Assembly (NCBI GenBank): GCA_003194425.1
Contig: PQXB01000001.1
Span: forward strand, 263,522-327,521
Reading direction: 5' to 3'
Length of the DNA: 64,000 nt
DNA from: Candidatus Methanophagaceae archaeon
GTDB lineage: Archaea > Halobacteriota > Syntropharchaeia > Alkanophagales > Methanospirareceae
In this document: piece after piece, positions 1,088-60,153 of the stretch
Position numbering within the stretch: position 1 is the first letter of the stretch
Layout: the number at the start of each line of letters is the position of its first letter
Translations under genes and position numbers: made by a program
Notes under the pieces: model-generated
Told to the model about the DNA's origin: nothing
The model's database searches: none
Seen by the model: the letters and a program-made list of their open reading frames with translations, nothing else

Positions 1088-2515
1088 CTATATAAATACT
1101 ACCTCTACTCTCTCGCCTTCTTCTACAATCTCCTTCCCCTTCTCCACGAACACAAAACCGTCCGCTTTTGCGAGCGTAGAGATTGCCCCAGAGCCACTGA
1201 GAAAGGGGTAAGCGAGGAAATGCTCTTCTTGCTCTTCTTCTGATTCTGACTCCGCACGAGCGAGATTCACAAGCACATATTCATTCCGCCCGGGTTCAGA
1301 GAATATCCTGACCCCCGCCTTCGCTTTTACCCTCTTCCTCCTTTCCCTTCCCTCGCTCCCTCCCCGCCCCTCGCTCCCTTCGCCCGAGATTGCGCGTAGC
1401 AGGGGAGCGACGAAAAGATGAAAGGTAATCAGAGCCGAGGTAGGGTTGCCGGGCAGTCCAAACACGGGCTTTCCCTGAATTACGCCAAGAACAAACGGTT
1501 TTCCGGGTTTTATGTCAACGCCGTGCACGAGAATCTCGCCGAGCCCTTCGATCACCGCGGGCAGCACGTCGCCAACGCCCGCAGAAGTCCCGCCAGACAG
1601 AATTACGACCTCTGCACCTTTTGCGAGCGATTCCCGGATCTTCGCCGAGATCTCTCCCTCCTCGTCCCGCGCAATCCCGAGGGAGAAAGGGGCGCAGCCG
1701 TTTTCTCGCGCGGAATCGCAGAGCGTCTGCGCGTTAACATCGTAGATTTTTCCAGGCGCGAGGGAAAGGGCTTCCCCCGGCGCTACTAATTCGTTGCCCG
1801 TGGAAATAACCGCAACTCTCGGCTTTTTACGAACCAATACTTCTCTTACCCCGCAGGCAGCCAGCACGCCCGTCTCTCGCGGCGTTAGCAGTCGCCCCTT
1901 TTTTACGACCTTCTCCCCGCGTTTTATGTCCGAGCCCGCGGGCATAATATTTTCCGCAGGAGCAACGGGCTTGTAAATTCTCACTTTTTTCGATTTTTCA
2001 AACTCAAACGCGTTCTCGACCTTTACCACCGCGTTCGCCCCTCTCGGAATCGGCGCACCCGTAGCAATCCCCACGCAACTGCCCTCCTCTACGCCGCCGT
2101 ATTGCGACGCCGAAGGGAACTCGCCTGCTTTGAGGTAGCCCCGAACAACCAACGTAGCAGGCTTGCTTTCGTCGGCGTAAAAAGTGTCCGCGGCGAGAAC
2201 CGCGTAGCCGTCCATCGTAGCGCGGTCAAACGGCGGAATGTCCAGCGGCGAGAAAATATCACCCACAACGGTTCTACCAAGTGCTTCCTCAGTCCTTACT
2301 TTCTCGCCCTTTCCCCCTCCTGCCCCAACGTTTCCCCCCCCTACCCCAGCGCCAGCGGTGATTTTTTTCGCAAGCTCCGCGCTAAGGTCGCCGATTAGCC
2401 TTTTTACTTCTCCCTCCTCTGTTATTTCCAAGAATTGCTTCACTTTGCTTTTAAAAGGAAAACCTATAAAAACAAACAAGTCTATAAAATAAAAGGTGAG
2501 AACAACGGCAGACAA
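1088..2515 (-). CDS. moeA: Molybdopterin molybdenumtransferase MoeA
   Basis: Motifs PFDRATMDGYAV, GGTSAGVGD, KPGKP, GLPGNP; start codon uncertain (N-terminal 30 aa of the ORF look like AT-rich read-through); contains low-complexity inserts. Confidence 0.8.
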   Translation of the reverse strand: MSAVVLTFYFIDLFVFIGFPFKSKVKQFLEITEEGEVKRLIGDLSAELAKKITAGAGVGGGNVGAGGGKGEKVRTEEALGRTVVGDIFSPLDIPPFDRATMDGYAVLAADTFYADESKPATLVVRGYLKAGEFPSASQYGGVEEGSCVGIATGAPIPRGANAVVKVENAFEFEKSKKVRIYKPVAPAENIMPAGSDIKRGEKVVKKGRLLTPRETGVLAACGVREVLVRKKPRVAVISTGNELVAPGEALSLAPGKIYDVNAQTLCDSARENGCAPFSLGIARDEEGEISAKIRESLAKGAEVVILSGGTSAGVGDVLPAVIEGLGEILVHGVDIKPGKPFVLGVIQGKPVFGLPGNPTSALITFHLFVAPLLRAISGEGSEGRGGSEGRERRKRVKAKAGVRIFSEPGRNEYVLVNLARAESESEEEQEEHFLAYPFLSGSGAISTLAKADGFVFVEKGKEIVEEGERVEVVFI

Positions 2516-3065
2516 AAGCAGGGGAAATAGGGCAACTGCAACCGCGACTCACGGAACCGGAACGGTTGTGGCAGTGGGAACTGTGCTGGCAGGTGCAAGC
2601 ACGGGTCTTAATCTTGAGGGGATTTTTTATAACGGAGGGACGAAAATTGGGTATGTAGTTCATATTTTTATTGCACGAAGAAAAGTTAAAAAGCAGGAAA
2701 AAGTTAAAAAGCAGGATAAGATAAAAGAGATATTAAAGGAAGCGAAGATGTTAATGACAAACAAATATCATCACGCTCATCTGCATCATTGGTTGGATGG
2801 GAGCGCCGAAGAAGGAAGGAAAGAAGGAGTAAGTGAGGGGCGCTACAAAAATACCGCAAAAATATGAATAAAACAGGGAATAGAGAGATAGAGGATAGTA
2901 TAGAAGGGGGTATAAGAAGGTGAAAGGGAAGAGCGCGGAGAAAAGCAGGGAAAAAACGAGTGAAAGGGGAAAAGCAAGTAGAAATAGAGCAGAATACCGA
3001 AACCTTTTTATACATACTACCGAAAAGCATATATACCCCTTCAAAGAAATAGAAGGTATAAAAAA

Positions 3066-3089
3066 AATTAGGAGGTGAAAACAAAAAAA
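3066..3089 (+). promoter_or_regulatory. Conserved leader / Shine-Dalgarno element ATTAGGAGGTGAAAAC upstream of ATG
   Basis: Near-identical motif also precedes starts at 17473, 19890, 50921(-) and, as GGGGGTGA, 62916(-); complementary to the CCUCC 3' end of 16S rRNA. Confidence 0.5.
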
Positions 3090-4984: not shown

Positions 4985-5422
4985 ATGGGGAAGAAGAAAA
5001 GAGCAAAAGTAAGAATAGGAATGCTAGTAGTAGCGGTAAGTGTAGTAGCGTTGTTTTCGGCATCGGCATTCGCACAGCCGCCGGGTCTGCCATTTGGAAA
5101 CGAGACGACAAACGAAACGGGATTGCCACCCATTCCAATTCCGCCGACACAGCCTCCTGAAAATGCGCCTCTTCCGTCGCCTTCGGTAACCGCAACACTG
5201 CCTGTCTCTGCACCTGCCACTCCAACTGCACCACCAACTGCACCACCAACTGCACCTCCAACTGCACCAACTACTCCTACCGTGACGGTAACAGCAGTAA
5301 CACCAAAACCGCAAGCCGAGACGCCAGGTTTTAGCGTTTCGGCGGTTGTTACAGCAGTGCTTGGTCTTGGGTTTGTGTTAGTGGGGCTTAAAAGGACGGG
5401 GCAAAGAAAGAAGAGCAAATAA
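4985..5422 (+). CDS. Small secreted Pro/Thr-rich protein with PGF-CTERM-like sorting signal
   Basis: Signal peptide, (PTAP)n linker, then PGF (5325..5333) + hydrophobic helix + KRTGQRKKSK tail. Confidence 0.6.
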   Translation: MGKKKRAKVRIGMLVVAVSVVALFSASAFAQPPGLPFGNETTNETGLPPIPIPPTQPPENAPLPSPSVTATLPVSAPATPTAPPTAPPTAPPTAPTTPTVTVTAVTPKPQAETPGFSVSAVVTAVLGLGFVLVGLKRTGQRKKSK

Positions 5423-7870: not shown

Positions 7871-7886
7871 AATAGGAGACAGAGAA

Positions 7887-10800
7887 ATGGGAGAAAAGGG
7901 AAGGAAGAGAGAGGGGGGAAAGTGGAAGAAGAGACGACTGATTGGAGTAGCGGCGGTGGGGGCGATATTAGTGACGACTTTTGCTTCGCAGGCTGTGTGC
8001 GCATCGGTGCCGTTGTTTAATGAGGCAATACTTAGAGGGTATGTTTTCGATACGCAGGGAAATCCAATACAAAGGGCATTAATTGAATGGCGAGATAGCG
8101 AGACTATGGAACTATTTGAACTTACAACCACAACCTACACAGGATATTATTCCACGCCACACTTGTTCAACGACGCGGGCGCCGTAAGATCCTTGATAAC
8201 CGCCGCAAAGACAGACTTCTCTACTAACTCAACAATAATAACGACCGAGCCTGCTTTTCCGCCTACATTTTACGAACTGAATTTTACATTGCTTGAAATA
8301 GCGGAAACAGGCAGCATAAACATAAACGAGATAATGTACAATCCAAGCACGGAGCAAGGAAGCGACACCGTGCTGGAGTGGATTGAACTGCGCAACGACG
8401 ACACAGCAGCAGTGAACCTAAACGGCTGGACGATTGCGACACCCGAAGTAGGAAAAATAACAGAAGAAATAATTCTGCAGCCGGGAGGTTACGCAGTGCT
8501 TGCGAGGAACAAGGACGCGTTTGAGGCCTACTACGGTGCCGGTGGCGAGTTGTCGTGCTCGGTGGTAGAAGTGGAAATGAGACTTGGAAATGCAGAGGAC
8601 ACGGTAGTCTTGAAAGACGGTGCAGGAACAGAAATCGACCGGGTGTCCTACAAGGACGACTGGGGTGCGGACGGTAACGGGAAAACACTGGAACTAATTG
8701 GAGCAGGCGGGGGCTGGCGAGAGAGCGTAGCAGACGACGGAACGCCTTGTGCAGAGAACAGCGTAGTTTTTATGAAGCCCGACCTGACGGTTACCGTTTC
8801 AGACGGCTCGCTTAACTGCGGCTTCCTCTTCGGGAACGAGAGCAACGAGGTCTGCGTAACTGTCGAGAACATCGGCACTGACAGGACAGACGCGTTCAAC
8901 CTCTCCTTCGATATGAACGGCTTCAGCACAGAAGAGCGAGTGGCTGGCGGGTTAGTGGCTGGCGGGAATGCAACAACGGTCTGCGTCGCCGACCCGACGC
9001 TGCGAAGTGCGGGCGATTCGGTGACCGTTCGCGTCGTCGCAGACTGCAACGGCGAAATTACTGAGTCGAACGAGACGAACAACGCAGCCAGCCTCACAAC
9101 AACAGTCGTGAACAACGGCTACAAAGGAAAACGATACACCGGCGGCGAGGACATCGCCAGTTGGAAGAAATTTGAACTCAACGGCGACCTGCTCTACTCT
9201 GTCGGCGACAGTTTCTATCTGAGTGCTTACACCTACAAGCACTGGACGGAGTACGCTGCAAACTGGACTGTGAGCGACCTGCAAGTTCCTGATACTGAAA
9301 CTGCGACCGTTAGAGAGGCGAGGTTGTACGTGCCTTACACCTGGGACAAGGCAGGTGTGATGCCCGACGAGGTGAGCCTGACCTTCAACGGCGTGACTCA
9401 AACGTTGGACGCACACTACACGGATGAGAAAATGCACGCTACCAGCTACCCCTACGGAATGCTGGTATACAATGTAACCGAAGATTTGGATACAAGCGCA
9501 AGCGGCAACACCGCAGTACTCACTAACTCTCACCTCGGTGGCGGAAATGTGTCAATTCGCGGAATGCTTCTCACGGTGATTTACGCAGACGAGAGCGAGC
9601 CACTGCGTGAGATATTTGTTAACGAGGAGTTTGACCTGCTCTACGGCGGGGCGTCAAAATGCACGACGCCCGAGGAGGCGACCGCTTACGCTCCTTTCGG
9701 AACTGCTGACACTGAAGATGTTCTTTCTGCCACGCTGGTAACAGTCGCTCCTGGTGCAGGACCGAGTGAGGGGGAGCTGACCTTTAACGGGCAGAAATGG
9801 ACGGACGTGTGGAGTTTTGCAGGCGCTACGCAAATAGGAATAGACAAGCGAGAAGTAACTTCGTTCTTGCAGGCGGCCGAGAACGAAGCGGGGTTCCAAA
9901 GCAGCGCCGACTACTTTGAACCGAGCAACGCAATTCTCGTTGTAGAACACATTGAGCGGGTAAACCTAAACATAAACGAGATAATGTACAATCCAAGCAA
10001 GGAGCAAGGAAGCGACACCGTGCTGGAGTGGCTTGAACTGCGCAACGACGACACAGCAGCAGTGAACCTAAACGGCTGGACGATTGCGACACCCGAAGTA
10101 GGAAAAATAACAGAAGAAATAATTCTGCAGCCTGGAGGTTACGCAGTGCTTGCGAGGAACAAGGACGCGTTTGAAAATTACTACGGTGCCGGTGGCGAGT
10201 TGTCGTGCTCGGTGGTAGAAGTGGAAATGAGACTTGGAAATGCAGAGGACACGGTAGTCTTGAAAGACGGTGCAGGAACAGAGATCGACCGGGTGTCCTA
10301 CAAGGACGACTGGGGTGCGGACGGTAACGGGAAAACACTGGAATGGAATGCGACAGGCTGGTTTGAGAGCGAAGTAGAGGGCGGAACGCCTTGTGCAGAG
10401 AACAGCGTAGTTTTTATGAAGCCCGACCTGACGGTTACCGTTTCAGACGGCTCGCTTAACTGCGGCTTCCTCTTCGGGAACGAGAGCAACGAGGTCTGCG
10501 TAACTGTCGAGAACATCGGCACTGACAGGACAGACGCGTTCAACCTCTCCTTCGATATGAACGGCTTCAGCACAGAAGAGCGAGTGGCTGGCGGGTTAGT
10601 GGCTGGCGGGAATGCAACAACGGTCTGCGTCGCCGACCCGACGCTGCGAAGTGCGGGCGATTCGGTGACCGTTCGCGTCGTCGCAGACTGCAACGGCGAA
10701 ATTACTGAGTCGAACGAGACGAACAACGCAGCCAGCCTCACAACAACAGTCGTGAACAACGGCTACAAAGGAAAACGATACACCGGCGGCGAGGACATCG

Positions 10801-13436
10801 CCAGTTGGAAGAAGTTTGAACTCAAAGGCAACTTGCTCTACTCGGTCGGCGACAGTTTTTACCTGAGTTCCTCCACGCAGAAGCACTGGGCGACCTACAC
10901 TGCCAACTGGACTACAGGAGACCTACCAGTTCCCGAGACTGCGACTGTTAGAGAGGCGAGGTTGTACGTGCCTTACACCTGGGACAAGGCAGGTGTGATG
11001 CCCGACGAGGTGAGCCTGACCTTCAACGGCGTTGCTCAAACACTGGATGCACACTACACAGACAGGAAAGGCTACGGCTCCTACGACTACCCTTACGGAG
11101 CGCTGGCTTACAATGTAACCTCGGGTTTTGACCTTGACGTAAGGAACACCGCAGTGCTAACGAACACACACCCCGGCGGTGGAAATGTGTCAATTCGCGG
11201 AATGCTTCTCACGGTGATTTACGCAGACGAGAGCGAGCCACTGCGGGAGATATTTGTTAACGAGGAGTTTGACCTGCTCTACGGCGGGGCGTCAAAATGC
11301 ACGACGCCCGAGGAGGCGACCGCTTACGCTCCTTTCGGAACTGCTAACACTGAAGATGTTTTCTCTGCCACGCTGATAACAGTCGCTCCTGGTGCAGGAC
11401 CGAGTGAGGGGGAGCTGACCTTCAACGGGCAGAAATGGACGGACGTGTGGAGTTTTGCAGGCGCTACGCAAATAGGAATAGATAAGCGAGAAGTAACTGC
11501 GTTCTTGCAGGCGGCCGAGAACGAAGCGGGGTTCCAAAGCAGCGCCGACTACTTTGAACCGAGCAACGCATTCCTCGTTGTAGAACACAAGAGGCCAGAC
11601 CTTGTCGTCAGAGGGATTAAAATAAACCCCAACGGCACTCGCGGCGAAGAGATTGTTAGGGTTTATGTAAATGAGAGCAACAACCTCACTGCAGTCGTGC
11701 AGAACAACGGAAATGCCGACGCAGGAGCGTTTGAGGTCTGCTTCGAGGTGGGTTCAGGCGTTGAGGTCGGCTGCGTAAACGTGGCTGGACTGCCTGCTGG
11801 GGCTAACGCAACGGTCAGCACCTTTTGGACGCCGTGTTGCGAAAACTACTCGGTTGAGCCCGGTTTCCCGGCACGCTCGCTTCCCACAACTGTAAATGTA
11901 ACTGCGGACTGCACTGAAAAAATACCCGAGTCAGACGAGGCGAACAACCTGCTCTCGAAGTTTATTCCCGCTGTTCAGCAGTACGCGGGCTACGATGTTT
12001 TAGGCGGGGTCGTTAACAACGGCTACAAGAGCAAGAACTTCGACTGCAACGCCACTGAAGAGCCGCTGACACTCTTCGAGCACGAGGAGGAGTTGCTCGG
12101 CGGCGGTCTCGCGTTAAATGTAAGCGGTGCGAAAATCAGTTCCTTCGATCCCGGCGAGACCAGCACAAGAACCCACCACATTGAAATTCCTGAAGGTGCA
12201 ACCGTGAAAACCGCGAGGCTCTACGTCTACTGGTACGACAAATGGGGTAACTACAAGCAGTACCCAACTGGGTGCTTGGCGGACCTCAGCGTGAATTTTG
12301 GTGGCACCGAGTTCGCACCCGCAAAGAAATACAACGACCAGAAGGGCTTCGGCTACTACCACAGCCCGAAAGGAACTTACACCTACAACGTGACCTCAAA
12401 GGTGCGAGAAGCCGGGTCTGGCGACTACACCGCAGTCGTCAAGAACACCGACCCCAAGAACAGCACGACCCTACTCGGCGAAATGCTACTCGTCGTCTAC
12501 GACGACCCAGCGAAGACAAACCTCACGCAAATTTGGGTGCTTGAGGGCAACGACTACTTAATGTCCGCAGACGAGACGCACAACAGCTACAACTACGGCG
12601 TCTCGCCAGAAGAGGCGACTGCAACCGTGAAATTACCCGGAAACCTCTCGACAGCGGCAGCGAATCTCAGTTCCGTCTGCTCTGCAACGCTAATTTCGGT
12701 CGTCGCGCAGGGAATGTCGCCTGGAGCAAACCTACTCTTCAACGGCGAAGTCGTTAAGACAGACGCTTGGAACACGGAGACCGAAGCCTACCCAAACAGC
12801 AAAATTAATTTGGAGTCGTTAGATGTGAAGCCCTACCTGACCTTAACCGCTTCAGGCAACAGAGGAAACAGCGTTGGCTTCCAAGACACTGGCACCGACG
12901 GTCTGCAGGCGAGCAACGCGATTCTTGTGGTGGAATATTCTGAGCAAGAGCCACTGCACCCCGCTGTTTCAATTTCCACCGACAAAACAGACTACACCCC
13001 TGGCGAGACAATGCAAATTACACTGAACTTGTCAAATCCAACGGGGACTGACCAAACGGTGTGGTTTGAGTGGTACTTTGGAATACCGGCTTACAGCTAC
13101 TGGCTGCCTTTTGTAGAGCCTTTGCCTTTAAATTTGCCCGCGGGTTGCGAGTACTCCTTCCCCTTTTCAATTTTGGTAGGCAACTGGGGCGAGACGGGAT
13201 TTGACGCAGTCTGGCTCGTGAACCTGTCAGACCCGGTAACGCACAAAATTATAAGTTCTGACACTGCCGAGTGGAGCTACGCCCCTGTTCCTCCTGCTAC
13301 TGCTGTTGCTACCGCTGCAGTTAGCAGCGAGCAAACGCGAAGCGTAGAGAACTTTGATGAGGAAATGTTAGGTTCAGGCAGAGAAATAGAAAAGAAGTTA
13401 AAGGCAAAATTAGAAAGTGAAACAGAAAAAAGATGA
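7887..13436 (+). CDS. Giant secreted protein (1849 aa): 2x [lamin-tail domain - CARDB-like - NNGY module], a third diverged module, and the shared C-terminal domain
   Basis: Signal peptide; LTD-like INEIMYNP...EWIELRN...NLNGWTI; CARDB-like ...ITESNETNN; C-terminal SISTDKTDYTPGETMQI...AEWSYA domain. Confidence 0.85.
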   Translation: MGEKGRKREGGKWKKRRLIGVAAVGAILVTTFASQAVCASVPLFNEAILRGYVFDTQGNPIQRALIEWRDSETMELFELTTTTYTGYYSTPHLFNDAGAVRSLITAAKTDFSTNSTIITTEPAFPPTFYELNFTLLEIAETGSININEIMYNPSTEQGSDTVLEWIELRNDDTAAVNLNGWTIATPEVGKITEEIILQPGGYAVLARNKDAFEAYYGAGGELSCSVVEVEMRLGNAEDTVVLKDGAGTEIDRVSYKDDWGADGNGKTLELIGAGGGWRESVADDGTPCAENSVVFMKPDLTVTVSDGSLNCGFLFGNESNEVCVTVENIGTDRTDAFNLSFDMNGFSTEERVAGGLVAGGNATTVCVADPTLRSAGDSVTVRVVADCNGEITESNETNNAASLTTTVVNNGYKGKRYTGGEDIASWKKFELNGDLLYSVGDSFYLSAYTYKHWTEYAANWTVSDLQVPDTETATVREARLYVPYTWDKAGVMPDEVSLTFNGVTQTLDAHYTDEKMHATSYPYGMLVYNVTEDLDTSASGNTAVLTNSHLGGGNVSIRGMLLTVIYADESEPLREIFVNEEFDLLYGGASKCTTPEEATAYAPFGTADTEDVLSATLVTVAPGAGPSEGELTFNGQKWTDVWSFAGATQIGIDKREVTSFLQAAENEAGFQSSADYFEPSNAILVVEHIERVNLNINEIMYNPSKEQGSDTVLEWLELRNDDTAAVNLNGWTIATPEVGKITEEIILQPGGYAVLARNKDAFENYYGAGGELSCSVVEVEMRLGNAEDTVVLKDGAGTEIDRVSYKDDWGADGNGKTLEWNATGWFESEVEGGTPCAENSVVFMKPDLTVTVSDGSLNCGFLFGNESNEVCVTVENIGTDRTDAFNLSFDMNGFSTEERVAGGLVAGGNATTVCVADPTLRSAGDSVTVRVVADCNGEITESNETNNAASLTTTVVNNGYKGKRYTGGEDIASWKKFELKGNLLYSVGDSFYLSSSTQKHWATYTANWTTGDLPVPETATVREARLYVPYTWDKAGVMPDEVSLTFNGVAQTLDAHYTDRKGYGSYDYPYGALAYNVTSGFDLDVRNTAVLTNTHPGGGNVSIRGMLLTVIYADESEPLREIFVNEEFDLLYGGASKCTTPEEATAYAPFGTANTEDVFSATLITVAPGAGPSEGELTFNGQKWTDVWSFAGATQIGIDKREVTAFLQAAENEAGFQSSADYFEPSNAFLVVEHKRPDLVVRGIKINPNGTRGEEIVRVYVNESNNLTAVVQNNGNADAGAFEVCFEVGSGVEVGCVNVAGLPAGANATVSTFWTPCCENYSVEPGFPARSLPTTVNVTADCTEKIPESDEANNLLSKFIPAVQQYAGYDVLGGVVNNGYKSKNFDCNATEEPLTLFEHEEELLGGGLALNVSGAKISSFDPGETSTRTHHIEIPEGATVKTARLYVYWYDKWGNYKQYPTGCLADLSVNFGGTEFAPAKKYNDQKGFGYYHSPKGTYTYNVTSKVREAGSGDYTAVVKNTDPKNSTTLLGEMLLVVYDDPAKTNLTQIWVLEGNDYLMSADETHNSYNYGVSPEEATATVKLPGNLSTAAANLSSVCSATLISVVAQGMSPGANLLFNGEVVKTDAWNTETEAYPNSKINLESLDVKPYLTLTASGNRGNSVGFQDTGTDGLQASNAILVVEYSEQEPLHPAVSISTDKTDYTPGETMQITLNLSNPTGTDQTVWFEWYFGIPAYSYWLPFVEPLPLNLPAGCEYSFPFSILVGNWGETGFDAVWLVNLSDPVTHKIISSDTAEWSYAPVPPATAVATAAVSSEQTRSVENFDEEMLGSGREIEKKLKAKLESETEKR
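8317..9952 (+). repeat. Intragenic tandem duplication, copy 1 (~1.64 kb)
   Basis: By eye about 95-97% identical to 9967..11592; mirrored by duplicated antisense shadow ORFs in the ORF track. Confidence 0.9.
9967..11592 (+). repeat. Intragenic tandem duplication, copy 2 (~1.63 kb)
   Basis: Direct repeat of 8317..9952 with a few substitutions and short indel blocks. Confidence 0.9.
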
Positions 13437-31719: not shown

Positions 31720-31739
31720 AATTCTAAAATTCTAAAATT

Positions 31740-37985: not shown

Positions 37986-37993
37986 GTTTAGAT

Positions 37994-41971: not shown

Positions 41972-42388
41972 TCACTTCCAGAATCCGCAGCCACTTCCGC
42001 CCCAGCGTCCGCCGCGGACGCCCCAGTTGTCGCAGACCCCGTCGCCGTCCTCGTCCACAAATCCCGGGCAGTCCTGCCAGGAGAGGTTGTAGTTGGCGAA
42101 CAACTGCTGTCTGAACTCCAGCGCTTCCTGTCTCTGCTTCTCTCTGAACTCCTGCAGCTCTTGAACCGCCTCTTCTCTCTGCTCCTCTGTTAACTGGTTC
42201 ATCAAACACCAGCACCCCGAAGGCTGAGAAGGCGAGGCGCCGGGACCACCGGGACCACCGGGACCGCCGGGACCACCGGGACCGCCGGGACCACCGGGAC
42301 CGCGGGCACTCACTACGCTGCCGACCGCTGTCGCTACCACTGCCAGAACAAATATTCCAGCAACCAATTTCGTCTTCTTTCTGTCCAT
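41972..42388 (-). CDS. Small secreted protein with (GPG)n repeat and Cys-rich C-terminus
   Basis: Signal peptide, GPGGPGGPGGPGGPG, acidic helix, Cys-containing tail. Confidence 0.45.
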   Translation of the reverse strand: MDRKKTKLVAGIFVLAVVATAVGSVVSARGPGGPGGPGGPGGPGGPGGPGASPSQPSGCWCLMNQLTEEQREEAVQELQEFREKQRQEALEFRQQLFANYNLSWQDCPGFVDEDGDGVCDNWGVRGGRWGGSGCGFWK

Positions 42389-47094: not shown

Positions 47095-50000
47095 TCACTC
47101 CCTCTTCCTCATCGCTACTGCAAGCACAGCGCTCAAAACTCCGACCAAATAAAGCAGTCCTACAGCACTGAACTCCGGCACTGGCACTGGTGGCGGCGCT
47201 GCTGGTGGCGCACCCGGACCACCAGGGTCAACGATTTTTCCGTCTCCAACAGTCTTGTCCCCTCTCTTACCTTCAACAACTTTCCGTCGTACATAAATTT
47301 GTACCAGTGGTCCGTTGGGTTGCTTAGTGTGGGTCCGTATTTCCAGTATTCCGAGCCTGCAGGCAGGTCACCAGGCAGTTCGATCGTGACCTTCACTGTT
47401 TCTCCTACTGCAAGCCCGGCTATGTTGAATTTGAAGAACCCGTGCTTGAAGACGAGGTTCGGCTTTCCTGCTTTCTCTGTTGGCTCTGCAACCGCCACAA
47501 GATCCTCAAACCCTCCTGCGCTGGTCTTAAACTTTGCAGTTCCCGTGCCTGTGTTTGTGTCTACCGAAGCCTCTGTTGGTGGTAGTGGTTTTGTTGTTCC
47601 TCCAAAGCCAAGCAGTGTTCCTGTGTACTCGCTCTCTTGCAAATTCGCCCAGACGTAGTTCTCGGCGGTGTTAACGCCAGTGTTGCTGCACCTGTGCCAC
47701 GCTCCGTCTGTGTTGTTGTAGTAGTAAAATCCCATCGTGCTCTCGTCCTTTCCCGCTACCTCTGCGTCCGTGTAGTGCATCTCAACGTAAATCGGCCAGC
47801 TCACGTTCTCTTTGTCGCTGACTGCGACGTCAACGAATTTCTCAAGCATCTCTGCAGGCTTCTCTGCTTCCGGGTGCGGGTTCTCCTCGTAGTACGCCAC
47901 GGTCGCCGTAACTTCTCCTGTTGTCGTAATTTCTACGGTTGTGCCCGATTCTGACGGACCCTCTACTGTCTCGGTCTCTCCTGCTGGAATCGTCTCGTTC
48001 TCGGTTGAGGTCGTTTTTGTGATTGTGAAGACCGCGTCGCTCGTGTCCTCACCCGTGTTTCCTTCAACGTCCCGTGCCTCCACTTTTACGAGACTCTTGT
48101 TTGAGGTTGCAGCAGGGTTCGGCACTGTCCACGAATATTTTCCGTCGTTCGGCTCGTTCGTCGCGATTTCTGTCCAAGTGCCTGGGTTTCCGTTGTTCGT
48201 TGAGTACGAGATGTTTATCGGGTTCGCTGCCAAGTTGTGCGTTCCTTTCGCCACGCTCCATTTTATGTCGTAGACCGAGTCGCCGGGAATCTCCTCGCCT
48301 CCGTCTGGCTGCGTTACTGTCGGTGCTGGCGGCACTTCTGGAACTGTTCCAAGCGGAGCGAAGACGCAGAACTCGGTGATGTTTGCGTAAACGTAGTTTT
48401 CAGCCGTGTTCACGCCGTTTACTCCCGAGCCGTCCGCCAGCTCCCAGTCCGCGGTGGTTTCGTTGTACTTGTAAATTCTGAGTGTCGCTTCGTCAACGCC
48501 GCCCAAGTCGCCCTCCTCGTAACTCACGTTCAAGAAAATCCACGAGTCCCCGGTCACGTTCGTTGCGTTCACGAACTTACTGATGTTTGCCTTTCCTGCA
48601 GGGTCTGGCGGTGCAGTTCCCGTTTCCACGCCTTTCACCCCCACTCCGTTCTCGTAGTTGAACGAGACGGTTGTCGAGTAGCTGCGAAGGGCGAGGTTTT
48701 TTACGGTGTTGTTCTGCGAGCGGTTGCCTGAGTAGAAGCTGTAGTTGGTGTTGTTTGCGGCGGTGTTGTCAGTCAGCGTGTTGTTGGAATTCCCTACCTC
48801 TTCCCAGTCAGGGAACATGCAAATCAGTGCGAATCCTTTGTCGGTGTTGTTGCAGGCTCGGTTCTCCGAGAGCGTGTTGTAGTCGCAGGCGTCGTTGAGC
48901 AGAATTCCGACCTTGTTCGCTTCTGCGGTGTTGTTTGTTACGGCGTTGTGCGAGGCGTTGTGGTCAAGGAAAATCCCGACGCCCTCGCCCGTGTTTTCAC
49001 GCACGCAGTTGTCTTTTATCGTGTTGTGCGTGCAGTTCATTCCCAGGTAAATTCCGTTGTCGGCGTTGGAGCAGACGGTGTTGTTGTTTAGGTCGTTGTA
49101 GTGGCACTCGTCCCAGACTAAAAGTGCTGCCCACAAGCCAGTGTTTTGGCTAATGTTGTTGTAGCTGAGCGTGTTGTTGCTTGAAGAGAAGAGTTCGATT
49201 CCGTGCGCGTTGTTCTTGTTTGCGGTGTTGTTTGTGAGGTTGTTGTCGACCGAAGATTCAAGGTAAATTCCGCAGTTGGTGTTGTTCGAGGCGTTGTTGT
49301 TCGCGACGGTGCAGTTGTCCTCGAAGATTAAAGCGATTCCGTCGCCGAAGTTGTCGGTTGCGGTGTTGTCCGAGATTGTGTTGAAGCTCTCGCCACAACC
49401 CATAACTTGTATTCCTCCGTCCCAATTTTCTGTTGCGGTGTTTTCTGTAATTTTGTTGTTGCTCGAGTCAGACACTTGGACGCCCTGTTCTGAATTACCT
49501 TTTGCCTCGTTCCCGCTTACCTCGTTGTTGTCTGAGCCCAGCAAATTAACGCCAGAAGCCGGCTGCGGCATTATCGCAGACGTAACACCAGCCCAACTAC
49601 CAGCCCAACTACCAGCCCAAAGACCACCAACCCTTTCAACAACATCTCCGTTGTCGTTGCAAATATTGTCGGTGACGCTGTTCTCGAACGAGCCGAACAG
49701 ACTAATGCCAGACCCCCAGTTGCTCGAGGCGTTGTTGTTCGCGACGGTGCAGTTGTCCTCGTTTATCAAAGTTATTCCATCGCCGAAGTTGTTGGTTGCG
49801 TTGTTGTTGGAGATGTTGTTGTGGCTCGAAAGTAGCACCTCTTCAACCTCAACGCAAATTCCTGACCCTCCGCTGCCTGGATACATTCCTGTCTCTGACG
49901 CGGTGTTTTCTACGATCTCGTTGTGGCTCGAGGACTGCACATAAATTCCGTAACCGCACTCTATGGCGTTCCTCAGCACTGTGTTTCCTGTAACTTGGTT

Positions 50001-50921: not shown

Positions 50922-51256
50922 TTTTTATTTCACCTCCTAATTTTTTACTTCGCGGGGAACCGTCTCTTCGCGGGGAACCGTCTTCTTGAGTTTAACTTGT
51001 GTTTGGTTTGACTTGTTGCTTTCTTTTTCTTCTCCCCCTCTTCGCTTCGCCTGCGCGATTTTTTCTCTCCTGCTAACTCACTTGACTTCTCACTTGTTCC
51101 CTTTTACCCTATTTTTATTACTTCCATAAATACCTTCTTACCAAATCAAACACGAGTATAAAAAAGTTTCTAAATTTTCGCCCTCGCCGCTGCCTGCCCT
51201 CGCGAAAACACTGCACTCGTGGTGTGTCTCGGTTACTTTTACGCCGCGCGCTCTTC

Positions 51257-52860: not shown

Positions 52861-53739
52861 TCATTTATTCCCTCTAAAAGGCTCTAAAAAATCCGCTATT
52901 CTGTCGGTTAAACCCGCGGTGTGTGCCTCGCTCACGATTTTTGAAATCACCTCTGACACGAGGTTCATATTTTCTTCACTCCCTTTTATCCAAATGCGTC
53001 CGTTCTCCGCGATGAAAATAGAGCAGTTGCACTTCTCCTTCAGCATCCTAACCATCGAACCGCTCCTGCCGATGACGCGTGGCACTTTAGTGTGTGAAAT
53101 TTCCAACAACCTCCCGCCACCGCTGCCACCTCCACTCCCGCGTCCAATCTTGAAATCCTCTTCTAACGCCAAATCCACCCGCATTAGCGCATCTACTTTC
53201 GCTACCTTCGCCACGATTAAATCGTCTAAATCTAAATATTTCTTCATATCGCCAAATTCGATCCGCTCCTCCCTCGCCCCTCGCCCTCTCGCTGCACTTT
53301 CTCTCGTCCCGCTCCCTCTCGCTGCACTTTCTCTCGTCCCGCTCCCTCTCGCTGCACTTTCTCTCGTCCCGCTCCCTCTCGCTGCACTCACTCTCATCCC
53401 GCTCCCTCTTGCCCCTCCTTCTCTTCTGCCCCTTCCTCTAGCGTTAGAACCAGCACCTCTCCCAGCACCTGCAAATTCAGAGCTGTGCAGCCGAGCCTCG
53501 TAAGGAGAGGCAATGTCAACAATCCAATACGGAAAAGAAATCTCAACCACTTTTCCTATTACAACATCCCCCTGCGTCGGCACGTACTTCCCTGAAAGTG
53601 CCATCACTTTTATCTCGCCTTTCTCGTTCAGCACGCCGTACCGCGACGCGTAGACCTTACCGTCCTCAACGTAAGTCCCCTCGCCTGCACGACCCGTCTC
53701 TTCGGAGAGCAAATCCCCAGGAACTGCGATTTTGTACAT
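52861..53739 (-). CDS. rrp4: Exosome complex RNA-binding protein Rrp4 (S1 + KH)
   Basis: N-terminal [12 protein letters not shown]1 and KH regions; start at internal ATG 53739; contains 4 x 10-aa repeat. Confidence 0.75.
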
Positions 53740-53825: not shown

Positions 53826-56222
53826 TCATCCAACCAATTCTTCGTACTCACTGCACAGCACCTCCTTCAAACGCTCTGCCGTCTTTTTTCCCACACGCTC
53901 AACCTCCCTCAGCTCCTCCTCCGACGCCGTTACCAGCCGTTCGACCGTCTTGAACCGCCTCAGCAAGTTCCTCGCGGTCACGACGCCGACATTTGACAAC
54001 GCGGAGACGAGGAACTCCTGCTGCTCTTTCAACGACGCCGAGGGCTTCTTTCCGTGCGGGTTCACCTCTGTCTTCGTTCCGTTCGCGTTCGGCTGCTGCT
54101 CTCGCTTTGCGATTAGGTAAATTAGCGACGCCGTGTCTAGTTCGTCGCGGGTCTGCAGCACGGGAACCGAGAAGTCAAGAGCGATCGCAGCCAGCACGCC
54201 CCGCACCGCGTTTGGGTGCACACGCCGCTGCCCCTCCTGTCCCTGCCCGTAAACCGACCCCCTACCCTCGAGAACGAGCAGTGGTTTCTCGTACTCGCTT
54301 CGCAGCCGCCGAACCTGCTCCAGCAAGTTCCTGCGACCGTTCACGAGCGAGTCCAGAAAATCTGCAGTGGTCTTACGCTCGATGCAGACCTTCTCTGAGA
54401 CGACGTAGTCGCCGACGCCCAAATTCTGCAGTTCTAACACCGCACCCGCCTTCTCCAAGAACCTCGGCACGCCCGACTTCGTCTCTCGTGAGTCTACGAC
54501 GACGGTTACTTTTTGCTCCGCTGCCTCGTCGTCATTTTTTAAGTCAGTAATTTTGCGTTGCTGCTCGCTCCTTTCTTCCCTCGCCTCTTCAACCGTCGGC
54601 GTCGCCCCGTTTCTCATTTCGTTAATCCGCTTCCGCATTTCACGCTCCTTGTTCCTACTGACCCAGTAGTAAGCCTCGTCCCTCGTCCCTTTTGCAATTA
54701 GCACGACCACCCGCCCTATTTTTTTGCGAGCGGTTCTTCCTTTCCGCTGAATGCTTCTTATCGCGGACGGAATCGGCTCGTAAAACAGAACGAGGTCGGT
54801 CGCGGGAATGTCAAGCCCTTCCTCCGCCACTGAGGTAGCGACCAAAACATTGAAGACGCCGTCTTTGAACTTCTTTATTATTTCTACCTGCTCCCGCTGC
54901 TTCAGTCCCTTGTCCTCTGGCTTTGACGCCTGCCCAATGAATTTGACCGCTCTTATTCCTTCTTTTTCTGAACCCTGCTCCTGCAAACTCCGCCCCTGCA
55001 AACTCCGCCCCTGCAAAGCAGAGAAAACCATCTCCGCAGTGTCGCGGTAGTTGGTAAAGACGATTATTCTCGTCTCGGGGTTAGCACGAACCTCGTTCCG
55101 CAGAATGTCGAGGAGGACGCCGAGTTTTGGGTGCTCACCCTCGTAAGAGGCAGCCGCGAACACAGCCTCCACGAACTTGTGGTCCTTTAGCAGCCGCTTT
55201 GCAGCCTTGCTGCCCTGCTTCGAGACTGCCTCTGCTCGGAGCCGGTCAAAATACCGCCGCAGTGCGAAGATGCCCTGCGTCTCCACCAACTCAACCGCGT
55301 GCTTTATTTTTAGCACCTCCGCCTGCAGCGAGAGGGCTTGGTAGAGGCTCGGCTGCCTCTGTCTCGCCAGTTGCGTCTCTATTTTCCCCCGTAACTCCAG
55401 GAGTTCGGTCTTTGAAATCTCTCTCCCCACCCGCCCGCTCTTCTTCCGCAGCAGGAAGCCGAGTTTCTGAAGTCTGCGAACCCGCTCCTCCAAGACCTCC
55501 TCTAACACCCGCTTCTGCCTCTGCATCTCCGCAGGGACCTCAACGCTCCGCCACTCCAACTCCTTTCTGAAGATGTAAGGGGCGACGTCGCGGTCGTGTT
55601 CAGTCCTGCTCTCCACCCTCGAGATGCCGAGTGCGGTGCAGATTTCCAGAATCTTCTTCTTGTCGCTGCCCGGAGAAGCGGTCATTCCCAAGACTAACGG
55701 CTCTCTCCCCTGCTCCGCCGTCTGCTCTGCGTACTTCTCCGCGATGTAAACGTACGAGTAGTTCCCGACCGCCCGGTGGCACTCGTCAAAAATCAGGAGT
55801 GCAACTCCGCCGAGGTCAATTCTGCCGCTCAAAAGGTCGTTCTCAATTATCTGCGGCGTTGAGACGACTACGCTCGCGGACCGCCACTGCTCCTCTCGTT
55901 TTGCCGGTGCTATCGTGCCCGTGAAGGTCTGAATTAGCGAACCGTCAAGTCTCAGCACCGCCTTTAAGAACGCGGAATGCTGCTCGACCAGTGGTCTCGT
56001 GGGAGCGAGAAAAAGAATTTTTCCGTTCGCCTGCCGTTCCAGCCGTTCAACCAGAACCAAAAGAGCAACGGTCGTCTTACCCAAGCCCGTCGGCAGAACG
56101 AGCATCAAAGATTCCTTCTTCGCGGCTTCCGCGATCGCGGTTTGGTACTCCCTCCGCTCTACTACCCCCTCTTTCAAGAGCGGGTGCGAGACGAACTGCG
56201 GGGCGAACTTTGGTGCGTTCAT
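53826..56222 (-). CDS. hef: Hef helicase-nuclease (SF2 helicase + ERCC4 nuclease)
   Basis: Walker A LPTGLGKT, DECH, helicase C motifs; C-terminal ERCC4 (VVVDSRE...GDYVV...ERKTTADF). Confidence 0.85.
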   Translation of the reverse strand: MNAPKFAPQFVSHPLLKEGVVERREYQTAIAEAAKKESLMLVLPTGLGKTTVALLVLVERLERQANGKILFLAPTRPLVEQHSAFLKAVLRLDGSLIQTFTGTIAPAKREEQWRSASVVVSTPQIIENDLLSGRIDLGGVALLIFDECHRAVGNYSYVYIAEKYAEQTAEQGREPLVLGMTASPGSDKKKILEICTALGISRVESRTEHDRDVAPYIFRKELEWRSVEVPAEMQRQKRVLEEVLEERVRRLQKLGFLLRKKSGRVGREISKTELLELRGKIETQLARQRQPSLYQALSLQAEVLKIKHAVELVETQGIFALRRYFDRLRAEAVSKQGSKAAKRLLKDHKFVEAVFAAASYEGEHPKLGVLLDILRNEVRANPETRIIVFTNYRDTAEMVFSALQGRSLQGRSLQEQGSEKEGIRAVKFIGQASKPEDKGLKQREQVEIIKKFKDGVFNVLVATSVAEEGLDIPATDLVLFYEPIPSAIRSIQRKGRTARKKIGRVVVLIAKGTRDEAYYWVSRNKEREMRKRINEMRNGATPTVEEAREERSEQQRKITDLKNDDEAAEQKVTVVVDSRETKSGVPRFLEKAGAVLELQNLGVGDYVVSEKVCIERKTTADFLDSLVNGRRNLLEQVRRLRSEYEKPLLVLEGRGSVYGQGQEGQRRVHPNAVRGVLAAIALDFSVPVLQTRDELDTASLIYLIAKREQQPNANGTKTEVNPHGKKPSASLKEQQEFLVSALSNVGVVTARNLLRRFKTVERLVTASEEELREVERVGKKTAERLKEVLCSEYEELVG

Positions 56223-56306: not shown

Positions 56307-57563
56307 ATGAAAATGAAAGACAAAGGGAACATTCTGGATTTGGAGGCTGAAGTGATTTACAACGGGCTGTGCTGCTACTGCGGGACTTGCGGTGCGTTCT
56401 GCAAGGAGTACATTTCATTCGAGCAGGAGCGACCCGTGACGAGGAAGAAGTGTTACGAGATTCACGGTGCGTGCTACGATTTCTGCCCCCGGACTTTCTT
56501 CGCTCCTTTTGAGGTAGAGCGGGCGGTCTTCGGCGCCGTGCGGCGCGACAACCTGCTGGGCTACTACGCAACCGAAGAAGACATTTTTACGGCACGAGCG
56601 ACTGACGAAACGGTGAGAGCGCGGGGGCAGGACGGCGGCGTTGTCTCGGCGCTGCTCGGCTTCCTGCTTGAGCGCGGGGAGTTGGACGCGGCGGTCGTTT
56701 CGAAGAAGTCTGAAGAAGGAGAGGGAGAAGGAGAGGGAGAAGGAACTGGTGAAGGAACTGGTGAAGGAACTGGTGAAGGAACTGGTGAAGGAGCGGGGGT
56801 GTGGGAAGCCGAGCCGTTCGTTGCGACGACCAAAGAGGAGGTGCTGGCAGGAGCGGGCTCGAAGTACACGCAGTGCCCTTCGGTCTTGGGCGTTGGCGAC
56901 GCTCTCGAACGGGGGTACAAGAAGGTCGCACTCGTTGGGCTGCCGTGCCACATTCAAGGAATGCGGAAGGTTCAACTCTCGCGGGGGTTTGATGTCGGGG
57001 CGGAGCGGGTGAAGTTGTGCGTCGGGCTCTTCTGCACCGAGACTTTAGAAATGCCGCGGCTCAAGGCGAAGTTGGCGGAGTTGGGCACGAGAATAGAAGA
57101 GGTCGAAAAGTTCAACATAAAAAAAGGCAAATTCATCGTGCAGACGCAGGAGGGGAAAGAGTTAAAGACGCCGATAAAAAAGCTGCGGGACTGCGTGCGC
57201 GAGGCGTGCGACTACTGCTACGATTTTGCCGCGGAGTTCGCTGACCTCTCGGTCGGTTCAATCGGCTCCGAACTCGGCTGGTCTACTGTGATTGTGAGAA
57301 GCGAGCCGGGGCGGGAAGCGGTGAAGCAGGCGGAAGAAGCGGGCATTTTGGAAACCGCAAGGCTCTCCGAGGAGCAGTTAGAGGCAGTGCGGGGCTTGGC
57401 GTCGTTCAAGAAGCAGGGGAACTTGAAGAGCATTTACGAGAAGGCGGAGCGGGTTAGAATAATGAATCTTGAGGTGGAGCCGGAGAGGTTGGGGAAGTTT
57501 TTTGGTGTAGGTGGAGAGAAAAAAGAGAAGAAAGAAAAGAGGGGTGAAAGAAAATGGCGGTAG
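56307..57563 (+). CDS. Coenzyme F420 hydrogenase/dehydrogenase beta-subunit-family protein
   Basis: N-terminal Cys cluster [11 protein letters not shown] and FrhB-like body; (EG/TGEG)n insert. Confidence 0.65.
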
Positions 57564-58954
57564 ATGTTTCGGCACGAGAATACAGGACGATAAGAGAAGC
57601 AGCGGGTCCGTTAATCGTTGTAGGCGATGTAGAAGGCGTTTCGTACGGCGAGGTAGTGAAGATTGTGACGCCCGATGGGGAAGAGAAGACGGGGCAGGTC
57701 TTGGAAGCGAGCAAAGGGCTGGCGGTAGTTCAGGTCTTTGAGGGCACCAGCGGAATTGACACTGCGAGGACGAGGGTGCGGTTTACGGGCGAAACAATGC
57801 GAATTAGCGTCTCGCAGGAAATGGTTGGGCGGTTCTTTGACGGGCTGGGCAGGCCGATTGACGGCGGACCTGAGGTAATTCCAGAAGACCGGCTCTCAGT
57901 CATCGGCGCTGCAATAAACCCGACTGCACGCGACTACCCCCGCGAGTTCATTCAGACCGGCATCTCCACGATTGACGGAATGAACACGCTCGTTCGTGGT
58001 CAGAAGCTGCCGATATTTTCAGGGGCAGGAATGCCGCACAACGCCCTCGCTGCTCAAATCGCAAGGCAGGCGAAGGTGCTGACTACAAGCGAGCCGTTCT
58101 CGGTCGTCTTTGGCGCGATGGGAATAACGCACGAGGAGGCGTCGTTTTTTATGCGTGACTTCGAGCGGACGGGTGCGATCGAGCGGATTGTGGCGTTTGT
58201 CAACCTCGCGGACGACCCTGCGATTGAGCGTGTGATAACGCCGCGAATGGCACTGACGACCGCGGAGTTCCTTGCTTACGAGTACGATATGCACATTCTC
58301 GTTATTCTCACTGATATGACGAACTACTGTGAATCGTTACGGGAGATCTCGGCGGCACGAGAGGAGGTGCCGGGCAGGAGGGGCTACCCCGGCTATATGT
58401 ACACGGACTTGTCGATGAACTACGAGCGGGCGGGTCGGATAAAAGGACGCAAAGGCACGATTACGCAAATTCCAATTTTGAGTATGCCCGACGACGACAT
58501 CACGCACCCAATTCCTGACCTCACAGGCTACATCACTGAGGGGCAGTTCGTCCTCTCCCGCGACCTGCACAGGCGTGGGATTTTTCCCCCTGTTGATGTT
58601 TTGCCGTCGCTCTCGCGGTTGATGGACGAGGGAATCGGACCGGGCAGGACGCGGGAAGACCACGCCGGCGTCTCGAACCAACTTTATTCCGGCTACGCGG
58701 AGGGACGAGATATGCGGGACTTGGTCGCGGTCGTCGGAGAGGAGGCACTGACGAGCAGAGACCGGAGCTACTTGGAGTTCGCAGACGAGTTCGAGAAGCG
58801 GTTCGTTACGCAGGGCAGGAACGAAGAGAGGAGCATTGAGGAGACGCTGGGGCTTGGCTGGGATTTGCTGGCGACGCTGCCCGAGGGCGAGCTGAAGCGG
58901 ATTGACGAGGAGATAATAAAAAAGTACCACCCGAAATATAGGGTAGGGGTTTAA
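57554..58954 (+). CDS. atpB: A/V-type ATP synthase subunit B
   Basis: Strong similarity to the non-catalytic B subunit; start overlaps the frhB-like gene by 10 nt. Confidence 0.85.
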
Positions 58955-59076
58955 AGCCAGTGGGGGTTTAAAGCCAAAACCCCATAAATTCTTTAAATAC
59001 ACGCCTTTTATCACACAAATATCAACATCCAAACTCGCACCCGCGTACCCCTTAACAAACCACGCAGTCTCGTCTT

Positions 59077-60153
59077 TTACACCCTCGCGGTCCTCTCGCG
59101 CACCGCAGCCACAATTATCGGCAACGCGATCGTGGCGTCGCAGTAAACCGTAACCGCCCGCGCGTTCGCACCGACCTTGCCCCACGACTTCGCTTCGTCC
59201 AGCGTCGCACCGCTTAATCCCCCGTTCTCCGGCGTCTCGGTGGTTATTTGAATCGCGTAGTCAAAGCCCTCTCGCTCTCTCTCTCGCTCTTGCTCCTCAC
59301 CTCCGTCTCTCCCCTGCACCCGCGGCGGTGCGACCAGCGCGGTCTGGAAAATAAAGTTCTTAGGCACGCCGCCGCCGAGAATTAGCACCCCTGTCCGTTT
59401 CGCCTCGCAGAAAATATCCACCAACTCCTTCATATCCTCGAACGCGTCCACTCGTAAATTGCTCGTCTGCTTGTAAATCCAAGCGTGAAGTCCGATCATA
59501 GAATCCGCAATCGCAGGGCAGAACACGGGCACCCCGCTCTCCGCTGCACTTCGTAAAATAGAATCCGGGTCCGAGAGGCTCTCTCCAATCGCTCTTGTCA
59601 GTTCCCTAATGCTGTACCGCTTCTCCCTCTCCTTCTTCTCCACCCTCTTCTCCCTCTCCTCTCTCTCCGCCCTCTTCTGACCGAGTTTTTCAAAAACGCC
59701 CCTCAAAAAATCCTCCAACCTCGCAAACGCCTCGTCACGCACAATTACATCGTAGATTCTGTCGCTCCCTTCGCCTCGCAGCCACACGTCGTCCACCGCT
59801 GCACCTGGGTCTGCGCCGCCTACGGCTTCGCCTACGATTTTGTAGTGCCGCTCGCCGAGTGCTTCCAGAATGTCGTGCACGAGGTTTGCGCCCGTCGTTA
59901 CCACCACATCCACGAGCCGCTCCCGAATCATCTCTGCCAGCACGGTTCGCATTCCCGCAGGAACTAACGCACCAGCAACACCCAGGAACTTTGTCGTCTT
60001 TTCGCCCTCTCCCCTCTGCAGCATTTCCTCGTAAATGTCCACCGCCTCCGCCAACCTGCCGGCTCCGAAGGCACAGCCGCCCAAACCTCTCACAAGCTCG
60101 TCTACGCTCGTCTTCTTCCCGATTTTCACGCCCTGCACTTCCTTTAGCCGCAT
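59077..60153 (-). CDS. dys: Deoxyhypusine synthase
   Basis: Family resemblance (VPAGMR, VVVTTGANLVHD); Glu/Arg repeat inserts. Confidence 0.7.
   Translation of the reverse strand: MRLKEVQGVKIGKKTSVDELVRGLGGCAFGAGRLAEAVDIYEEMLQRGEGEKTTKFLGVAGALVPAGMRTVLAEMIRERLVDVVVTTGANLVHDILEALGERHYKIVGEAVGGADPGAAVDDVWLRGEGSDRIYDVIVRDEAFARLEDFLRGVFEKLGQKRAEREEREKRVEKKEREKRYSIRELTRAIGESLSDPDSILRSAAESGVPVFCPAIADSMIGLHAWIYKQTSNLRVDAFEDMKELVDIFCEAKRTGVLILGGGVPKNFIFQTALVAPPRVQGRDGGEEQEREREREGFDYAIQITTETPENGGLSGATLDEAKSWGKVGANARAVTVYCDATIALPIIVAAVRERTARV

Follow-up and report, generated by a model that had tools for sequence, protein, structure and literature searches.

Lineage-specific variable-number tandem repeats in housekeeping genes of an ANME-1 archaeon

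Conserved genes in the 64-kb stretch of DNA analysed here (the window) carry short tandem arrays that keep the reading frame, are missing from orthologues in other lineages and change length by whole units between near-identical strains. The window comes from a genome of ANME-1 ("Ca. Methanophagaceae"). This is probably the ANME-1a genome of the 37 °C Guaymas Basin enrichment (G37; Krukenberg et al. 2018), which comprises 1.40 Mb, 1402 genes and 5 scaffolds at 52% GC (PMC5947290). The GC content of the window is 50-56%, its exosome protein Rrp4 (52861-53829, minus strand) is identical to PXF51140.1 (C4B55_01630), and the G60 ANME-1 genome of the same study has the adjacent locus-tag prefix, C4B56 (PMC10702137). 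We read the arrays as variable-number tandem repeats with units of 6-36 nt, arising by slipped-strand mispairing or unequal exchange throughout the genome of one ANME-1 species-level lineage and filtered by selection, and give this reading a probability of about 0.8.

Excess, reading frame and composition of the arrays

Arrays were defined as merged Tandem Repeats Finder calls with a score of at least 50 within the window. The program returned 148 rows at a score of at least 30, and calls at or above 50 merged into 34 arrays covering 1,864 nt. Thirty dinucleotide-preserving shuffles within 1-kb blocks yielded a mean of 0.47 arrays and never more than 1. For the 52 genes, in which 24 arrays were observed, 40 within-gene codon shuffles gave a mean of 0.45 and a maximum of 2, showing that codon usage and amino-acid composition do not account for the excess. 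Head-to-tail short units above chance, the first mark of variable-number tandem repeats, are therefore present, and the repeats are far commoner than composition predicts. All 13 arrays that the initial annotation of this DNA had offered as examples were recovered by Tandem Repeats Finder at, or a few bases from, the places it gave. Its gene names also hold, with Pfam matches for NUDIX, the oxidoreductase, MFS, TrkH, MTAP, GatA, Rrp4, Hef, the FrhB-like protein and deoxyhypusine synthase, and NCBIfam assigns methanogenesis marker 12, a PRK06052-type methionine synthase and isopentenyl phosphate kinase.

The best period was divisible by 3 in 23 of the 24 coding arrays (binomial p = 2e-10 against 1/3), which bears out the earlier claim that repeat-bearing genes keep their frame. 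The lone exception is a 22-nt duplication (22 nt x 2) at the 3' end of an accessory gene (60201-61175). The ten non-coding arrays have periods of 8, 11, 12, 12, 17, 18, 18, 18, 23 and 25 nt, half of them divisible by 3 (Fisher p = 0.005 for coding versus non-coding). Non-coding DNA is also about five-fold denser in arrays, at 2.15/kb (10 arrays in 4.6 kb) versus 0.40/kb in genes. Frame bias in genes together with denser non-coding arrays is the pattern expected if duplication is blind to period and selection then acts in genes.

Composition follows the coding strand. The sense strand of coding arrays is 78% purine versus 57% for all genes, and 65% of array codons begin with G versus 40% overall. 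Array peptides are enriched 3.0-fold in Gly, 2.1-fold in Glu and 1.9-fold in Arg, with Leu, Ile, Asp, Asn and Tyr at 0.1-0.3 of background. The non-coding arrays are A/T-rich and neither purine- nor G-rich, which argues against a sequence-specific cause such as G-quadruplex, triplex or transcription-linked instability of the purine-rich arrays. We read the composition of the coding arrays as that of the genome's own (GNN)-like, purine-loaded coding sequence after a filter for tolerated peptides, and not as the product of sequence-specific mutation.

Restriction to one lineage and placement in proteins

The window holds 0.53 arrays/kb over its 64 kb. Eight sister-strain contigs from independent JGI/ENA assemblies (L001, L082, L083, L084, L112, L114, L116 and L119), 98.5-99.5% identical to the window, hold 0.74 arrays/kb over 40.6 kb, with 26 of 30 periods divisible by 3. 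By comparison, 80 Rrp4-centred loci from species-representative genomes of related archaea carry 0.10 arrays/kb over 1.18 Mb, many loci having none, and 31 oxidoreductase-centred metagenome contigs of other lineages carry 0.069 arrays/kb over 203 kb. GC content cannot by itself be the cause, given that three of the latter contigs have 56% GC. The lineage thus carries about ten times the short tandem repeat density of its relatives. In the few other repeat-rich loci (an ANME-1-LC contig, Methanosarcina) periods are mostly not divisible by 3 and would thus break a reading frame, counted without regard to coding or non-coding placement.

Rrp4 illustrates the pattern at the protein level. Its array (53273..53424, minus strand; periods 15/30/60 nt) lies inside the S1 domain, and in an alignment with 15 orthologues the resulting S1 insert of ~64 residues and a GSGGGSG insert occur only in the window protein and one 93%-identical relative. 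The other 14 orthologues (ANME-1, Syntrophoarchaeum, Methanocella) run directly from SEF... into ...IEFG, and against A. fulgidus 2ba0_A 78 query residues stand opposite 11. In an AlphaFold model made from the orthologue alignment, the N-terminal, S1 and KH domains are folded with a predicted local distance difference test score (pLDDT) of 70-90, and coil with pLDDT <50 is predicted exactly at the inserts (residues 121-187 and 231-237) and at residues 1-30. Those first 30 residues (53740-53829) have no counterpart in the orthologues, which begin at the MYK motif; Met31 is the probable true start. Three Rrp4 proteins of another ANME-1 lineage (P0084-P0086; 268-298 aa in total) have Ser/Glu/Gly-rich C-terminal tails of varied length, which indicates that low-complexity sequence has grown independently, and elsewhere in the protein, in a second lineage.

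Other conserved enzymes gave the same result. The pyridine-nucleotide-disulfide oxidoreductase array (23807..23858, plus strand; 12 nt x 4.3) encodes (GEGV)4 and is missing from 11 of 11 orthologues of other metagenomic lineages, all of which also lack three further inserts of the window protein, AARGKRKE, GG and RGKGGRKGG. In the MTAP-family phosphorylase, an array encoding (EGAV)5 (38664..38721, minus strand; 12 nt x 4.8) directly follows the N-terminal GGTS motif; 13 orthologues read LLE(G/D)A(K/E)ERE where the window reads LLEGAVEGAVEGAVEGAVEGASAEPRE, and the alignment to 2a8y_A begins only past the array. The AlphaFold model of this protein is poor, with a mean pLDDT of 58 and many low-confidence segments. 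The GatA amidase array (40203..40242, plus strand; 6 nt x 6.7, GAGAGVGAGAGAG) falls at an 11-residue gap in the alignment to 2df4_A.

For Hef, the FrhB-like protein and deoxyhypusine synthase, whose orthologues are not syntenic with Rrp4 in other ANME-1, the comparators were solved structures. The Hef helicase/nuclease array (54980..55017, minus strand; 15 nt x 2.5, (LQGRS)2), adjoined upstream by a partial copy, TTTGCAGG, corresponds to a 15-residue gap in the alignment to P. furiosus 1wp9_A. In the FrhB-like F420-binding subunit, whose array (56714..56797, plus strand; periods 12/24/36 nt) encodes (EG)n(EGTG)n, query residues 138-165 are unmatched in 8riu_B. Deoxyhypusine synthase has low-complexity inserts at gaps in three places relative to 8put_A, one of them the called array (59620..59678, minus strand; periods 9/27 nt, AEREEREKRVEKKEREK). 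The hef and rrp4 genes of the window overlap by 4 nt (53826-53829), and a 1070-aa protein of ANME-1 cluster archaeon ex4572_4 (P0241) resembles a Hef-Rrp4 fusion, which may be a frameshift or annotation artefact.

These alignments agree with the earlier proposal that the inserts are lineage-specific: they are absent from the orthologues of Rrp4, the oxidoreductase and MTAP, and neither other ANME-1 orthologues nor solved structures carry them. Being in frame, compositionally biased and absent from orthologues, the array-encoded segments, as predicted by translation, have the properties of repeat-derived low-complexity regions. A surface-loop position, raised earlier as a question, is clearest for Rrp4, whose inserts are predicted coil; beyond Rrp4 the evidence consists of the alignment gaps. 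The idea that selection maintains only the frame is too narrow. Selection acts on more than frame, as coding arrays are several times rarer per kb than non-coding ones, lie at alignment gaps or variable loops of homologues (in Rrp4, low-confidence coil), and encode peptides biased to Gly, Glu, Ala and Arg and against Leu, Ile, Asp, Asn and Tyr on a purine-rich sense strand.

The array at the N terminus of isopentenyl phosphate kinase (45021..45055, plus strand; 9 nt x 3.9, (ERR)3) sits in a 20-residue extension, with the NCBIfam model IPPK_Arch aligning from residue 21 only; judged from this alignment, it may lie upstream of the true start codon. A small protein with no family match and a hydrophobic N-terminal segment resembling a signal peptide contains a (GPG)7 array (42240..42301, minus strand; 9 nt x 6.9).

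Length changes among sister strains

Of the 20 arrays that one or more strain comparisons covered, roughly 12 are polymorphic, at a substitution divergence of 0.5-1.5%. Every gene-body indel of at least 6 nt is a whole number of repeat units, so close genomes differ in whole-unit copy number as variable-number tandem repeats do. Signs below give the sister strain relative to the window. Over 10.6 kb with 84 substitutions, L001 differs by -60 nt in Rrp4 (2 x 30), -15 nt in Hef (1 x 15), -24 nt in the FrhB-like gene (2 x 12) and -6 nt in a Glu-rich run of Rrp41. The only other coding indels are +1 and +3 nt in the Rrp41 3' tail, and a non-coding array of 18 nt x 2 (50948..50983) is rearranged (-17/+14 nt).

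The next set of differences comes from L082, L083, L084, L112, L114 and L116. The NUDIX hydrolase array (23077..23143, plus strand; periods 6/18/30 nt, peptide GEGEDEGEGKDEGEDKSEG) differs by -6, -6, +6, +30 and +36 nt, counted as five length alleles, and the oxidoreductase array by -24, -24 and +24 nt. The MFS transporter gene has two arrays, one encoding (EERG)n (25150..25196, plus strand; 12 nt) and a long one encoding (GEERGx)n (25819..25981, plus strand; 18/36/54 nt x 8.8) with a sense strand that is 97% purine. Differences of +12, +9, -72 and -108 nt were seen in this gene; the first array accounts for +12 nt in L082, and the long array for -72 nt in L082 and -108 nt in L084. Methanogenesis marker 12 (NCBIfam TIGR03281) gains 12 or 24 nt in its (GGVR)3 array (26882..26918, plus strand; 12 nt x 3.1).

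Similar changes mark L119, with 61 substitutions over 13 kb: the MTAP array is 24 nt shorter (P0121/L119), and a non-coding array of 8 nt x 3.2 (31719..31744, AAATTCTA) is shorter by one 8-nt unit. Rrp4 proteins clustered at 90% identity include 15 full-length, near-identical members drawn from separate assemblies, whose arrays fall into five length classes of 0, -5, -10, -15 and -20 residues. The initial annotation spoke of an active process, and this is supported by the whole-unit differences in most covered arrays between strains 0.5-1.5% diverged.

The strain comparisons also revealed larger differences. The region 60155-61218, with the 324-residue accessory gene (60201-61175, no family match), is missing from L001, where deoxyhypusine synthase nearly abuts tRNA-Pro (61220-61292); it looks like a strain-specific insertion beside a tRNA gene. 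About 650 nt within 27210-27908, including a 144-residue membrane open reading frame (27256-27690), is missing from L082 and L084. This segment is immediately upstream of a gene (27835-29370) in which an N6/N4 DNA methylase is joined to an Mrr-like / NA-iREase1 domain. A second, stand-alone Mrr-like / NA-iREase1 gene (30110-30565) follows 700 nt further on, and together they may make up a variable islet for restriction-modification or defence. A 132-residue open reading frame at the window's end (63387-63785) crosses an opposite-strand tRNA-Thr (63663-63734, minus strand), and at least its 3' half is probably spurious.

Several arrays and repeats lie in surface-protein genes or intergenic DNA. 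A CARDB-domain surface protein has an array of 30 nt x 2 plus 12 nt x 2.3 (15096..15169, plus strand), and a 1253-aa surface protein has one encoding (WAGS)n (49587..49620, minus strand; 12 nt x 2.8). A surface protein of 1849 residues (7887-13436) contains an in-frame tandem duplication of ~1.64 kb (8317..11444, plus strand; 95-98% identity) with spacings of 1638, 1644 and 1650 nt, each divisible by 3, which suggests the same tendency as the arrays on a larger scale. Its C-terminal module, SISTDKTDYxPGETMQIxLNLSNPT, recurs in four or more of the window's secreted proteins (7887, 13433, 19890 and 61411). In the 510-nt gap before a subtilase gene is an array of CCAACTGCACCA x 4 (5214..5269), overlapped by two putative open reading frames (4985-5422, plus strand; 4564-5661, minus strand). 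It is 89% identical to the MTAP array over 46 nt, through either chance convergence of GGTGCAGTT-type units or copying.

Origin, alternatives and significance

Two arrays retain traces of where they came from. The Hef array consists of GCTTTGCAGG, GGCGGAGTTTGCAGG, GGCGGAGTTTGCAGG and AGCAGG in succession, and the TTTGCAGG found just before the array also closes its unit, a signature of duplication through misaligned short direct repeats. The MTAP array contains the orthologues' ancestral EGA, and the orthologue seed is LLEGA. The description of the repeats as insertions is misleading, since the MTAP and Hef arrays grew from local sequence and not from imported DNA.

A mechanism consistent with these results would begin with duplication of a short segment that has a few bases of flanking microhomology. 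The direct repeat would then gain or lose whole units, at a rate per array comparable to tens of point substitutions. The process would not be sequence-specific, as the non-coding arrays are A/T-rich and have any period. Within genes, selection would spare only events that keep the frame and fall in surface loops, domain linkers or termini, and that encode small, flexible or charged residues (Gly, Glu, Ala, Arg). With codon position 1 rich in G and sense strands rich in purine, the survivors would look like (GNN)n purine-rich repeats, and point mutation would decay old arrays into the many degenerate low-complexity inserts. Slippage is the probable molecular event, and the lineage probably has a raised rate of such events.

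The lineage may stand apart because its slippage rate is raised, because selection is relaxed in its reduced genome, or for both reasons. Tentatively, the lineage might be a natural repeat-instability archaeon in which changed replication or repair raises short tandem duplication genome-wide. Candidate causes would be changes to Okazaki-flap processing, to loop repair or to fork restart, and Hef, a protein that bears an insert of its own, might be involved. Hef is intact apart from the 10-15-residue repeat insert in its helicase domain.

Several points weigh against reading the arrays as genome-wide variable-number tandem repeats of a hypermutable lineage. No length change was seen in the arrays of TrkH (36667..36730, plus strand; periods 6/18 nt, (GA)6), GatA and the methionine-synthase-like protein (PRK06052; 30873..30967, plus strand; 21 nt x 4.5, (GGRGSGE)n) in L119, or in that of deoxyhypusine synthase in L001, each from one comparison. 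Two non-coding arrays are likewise unvarying, among them the 23 nt x 3 array of perfect copies between the trkH and MTAP genes (37916..37986), which is the same in L119. Strain polymorphism could come partly from recombination among strains, which bears on the mutation rate read from it. The genome-wide pattern is extrapolated from 64 kb plus ~40 kb of sister contigs, and the translation of arrays into low-complexity peptides is predicted from reading frames rather than from proteomics. A few units are alike across genes, only as low-complexity GGAG/GGTGCAGTT-type strings. As to the cause of the lineage difference, no replication or repair gene besides Hef lies within the 64-kb window.

Among other explanations, ordinary slippage under unusually weak purifying selection is possible but doubtful as a full account. 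Here a small effective population with a reduced 1.4-Mb genome would let slightly harmful duplications drift to fixation, in keeping with the small size of the probable source genome (1.40 Mb, 1402 genes; PMC5947290), the inverse relation between low-complexity regions and paralogy in prokaryotes found by Persi et al. (PMC10120016) and the many degenerate old inserts in proteins. Weak selection alone leaves unexplained that ~60% of arrays differ at 98.5-99.5% identity and that non-coding DNA reaches 2.15/kb, ~30-fold above the overall 0.07-0.10/kb of other lineages. It is compatible with a raised mutation rate, so both can hold, and weak selection in the small genome could also contribute to fixation if slippage is elevated. 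An adaptive account, in which charged or flexible disordered loops are kept because they tune solubility, interactions or surface and in which length variation is itself adaptive, is unlikely. The non-random enrichment in Gly, Glu and Arg, the persistence of arrays in all sister strains and the adaptive low-complexity roles proposed for fast-evolving proteins (PMC10120016) speak for it. Yet the peptides share no chemistry, being acidic (GE, EERG), basic, neutral (GA, GPG, EGAV) or even WAGS; the enzymes hit are unrelated housekeeping enzymes, with non-coding DNA five times denser; copy number is unconstrained between near-identical strains; and orthologues in all other lineages work without arrays.

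A small mobile or templated element integrating in frame, like the Rickettsia palindromic elements, is largely refuted and very improbable, since the sites do not share a common element sequence. Besides the resemblance of the 5214 array to the MTAP array, the oxidoreductase and FrhB-like arrays are 93% identical over 28 nt, but an all-against-all comparison found just 6 similar pairs among 561, all of them low-complexity strings, and units differ in length (6-36 nt) and sequence. Strains differ by internal whole units and not by presence or absence of an element, and in MTAP and Hef the arrays grew out of the adjoining host sequence. An assembly or binning artefact of a metagenome-assembled genome has a negligible chance of being correct and was rejected because independent assemblies agree. 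Repeats are known to disturb assembly, and the L119 scaffold is interrupted by a run of N inside the (GPG)n array, but arrays occupy the same positions in at least eight independent JGI/ENA contigs and several NCBI metagenome-assembled genomes, and they are shorter than a sequencing read.

Variable-number tandem repeats in the lineage can be set beside several known systems. Bacterial genomes have tens of variable-number tandem repeat loci per several Mb, and the MIRU-VNTR loci used for typing Mycobacterium tuberculosis have units of ~6-60 nt and whole-unit polymorphism, some of them in frame in genes. The ANME-1 arrays share the unit range and the whole-unit polymorphism but occur at ~0.5/kb and in core archaeal enzymes. 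Housekeeping proteins of Plasmodium falciparum have pervasive lineage-specific, non-globular loop inserts that are Asn/Lys-rich and vary in length by strain. The ANME-1 arrays are likewise loop inserts in conserved enzymes, with composition following nucleotide bias and length varying by strain; unlike that A/T-rich eukaryote, this archaeon has ~52% GC, purine-rich sense strands and Gly/Glu/Arg/Ala inserts. Contingency loci of Haemophilus and Neisseria have units of 1-5 nt and switch surface or restriction genes on and off by frameshift. They too are hypermutable by slippage, but 23 of 24 ANME-1 coding arrays keep frame and all strain indels in genic arrays are multiples of 3, leaving no on/off switch. 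In yeast, rad27 (FEN1) mutants reportedly show minisatellite instability along with duplications, from a few to ~100 bp long, that are bounded by short direct repeats (Tishkoff et al. 1997). The Hef array with its TTTGCAGG flank resembles this signature, an analogy for a possible cause only.

In prokaryotes, low-complexity regions have been attributed to in-frame proliferation of short repeats, mainly by replication slippage, and are described as transient, decaying by mutation, able to affect ancestral functions and inversely related to paralogy (Persi, Wolf, Karamycheva, Makarova, Koonin 2023; PMC10120016). The ANME-1 arrays similarly expand and contract in frame, and the paralogy relation fits a 1.4-Mb genome. 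Those regions are mostly in young, fast-evolving families, whereas the ANME-1 arrays are in old housekeeping genes (Rrp4, GatA, deoxyhypusine synthase, MTAP, Hef and methanogenesis marker 12), at ~ten times relatives' density and in a single lineage. A survey of 117,861 genomes named Plasmodium falciparum as having the highest short-repeat density and archaea the lowest, 1.02 bp/kb with no enrichment over simulations (PMC12699852); the window has 29 bp/kb under Tandem Repeats Finder's broader definition, which is not directly comparable. A literature search combining ANME-1 with tandem-repeat, low-complexity, microsatellite, variable-number or mismatch-repair terms did not find the phenomenon described, and a 2026 study of variable hotspots in ANME-1 leaves out variants of 50 bp or less. 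As a type, the feature is already known; its intensity, its restriction to one archaeal lineage and its concentration in housekeeping genes are undescribed.

As a roughly ten-fold repeat outlier in core genes against its closest relatives, the lineage provides a handle on what normally keeps archaeal repeats rare. The arrays are ready high-resolution strain markers for an uncultured and biogeochemically important methane oxidiser, Rrp4 alone having five alleles. They also bring a practical warning, because scaffolds break at them, protein clusters become inflated or split, and proteins expressed or modelled from this genome acquire disordered loops. The lineage also agrees with, and could serve to test, the proposal that low-complexity growth trades off against paralogy in small genomes (PMC10120016). 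If the lineage is indeed a repeat-instability archaeon, its housekeeping proteome would be one remodelled by disordered loops, and it would offer an enrichable system for studying how archaea suppress repeat instability.

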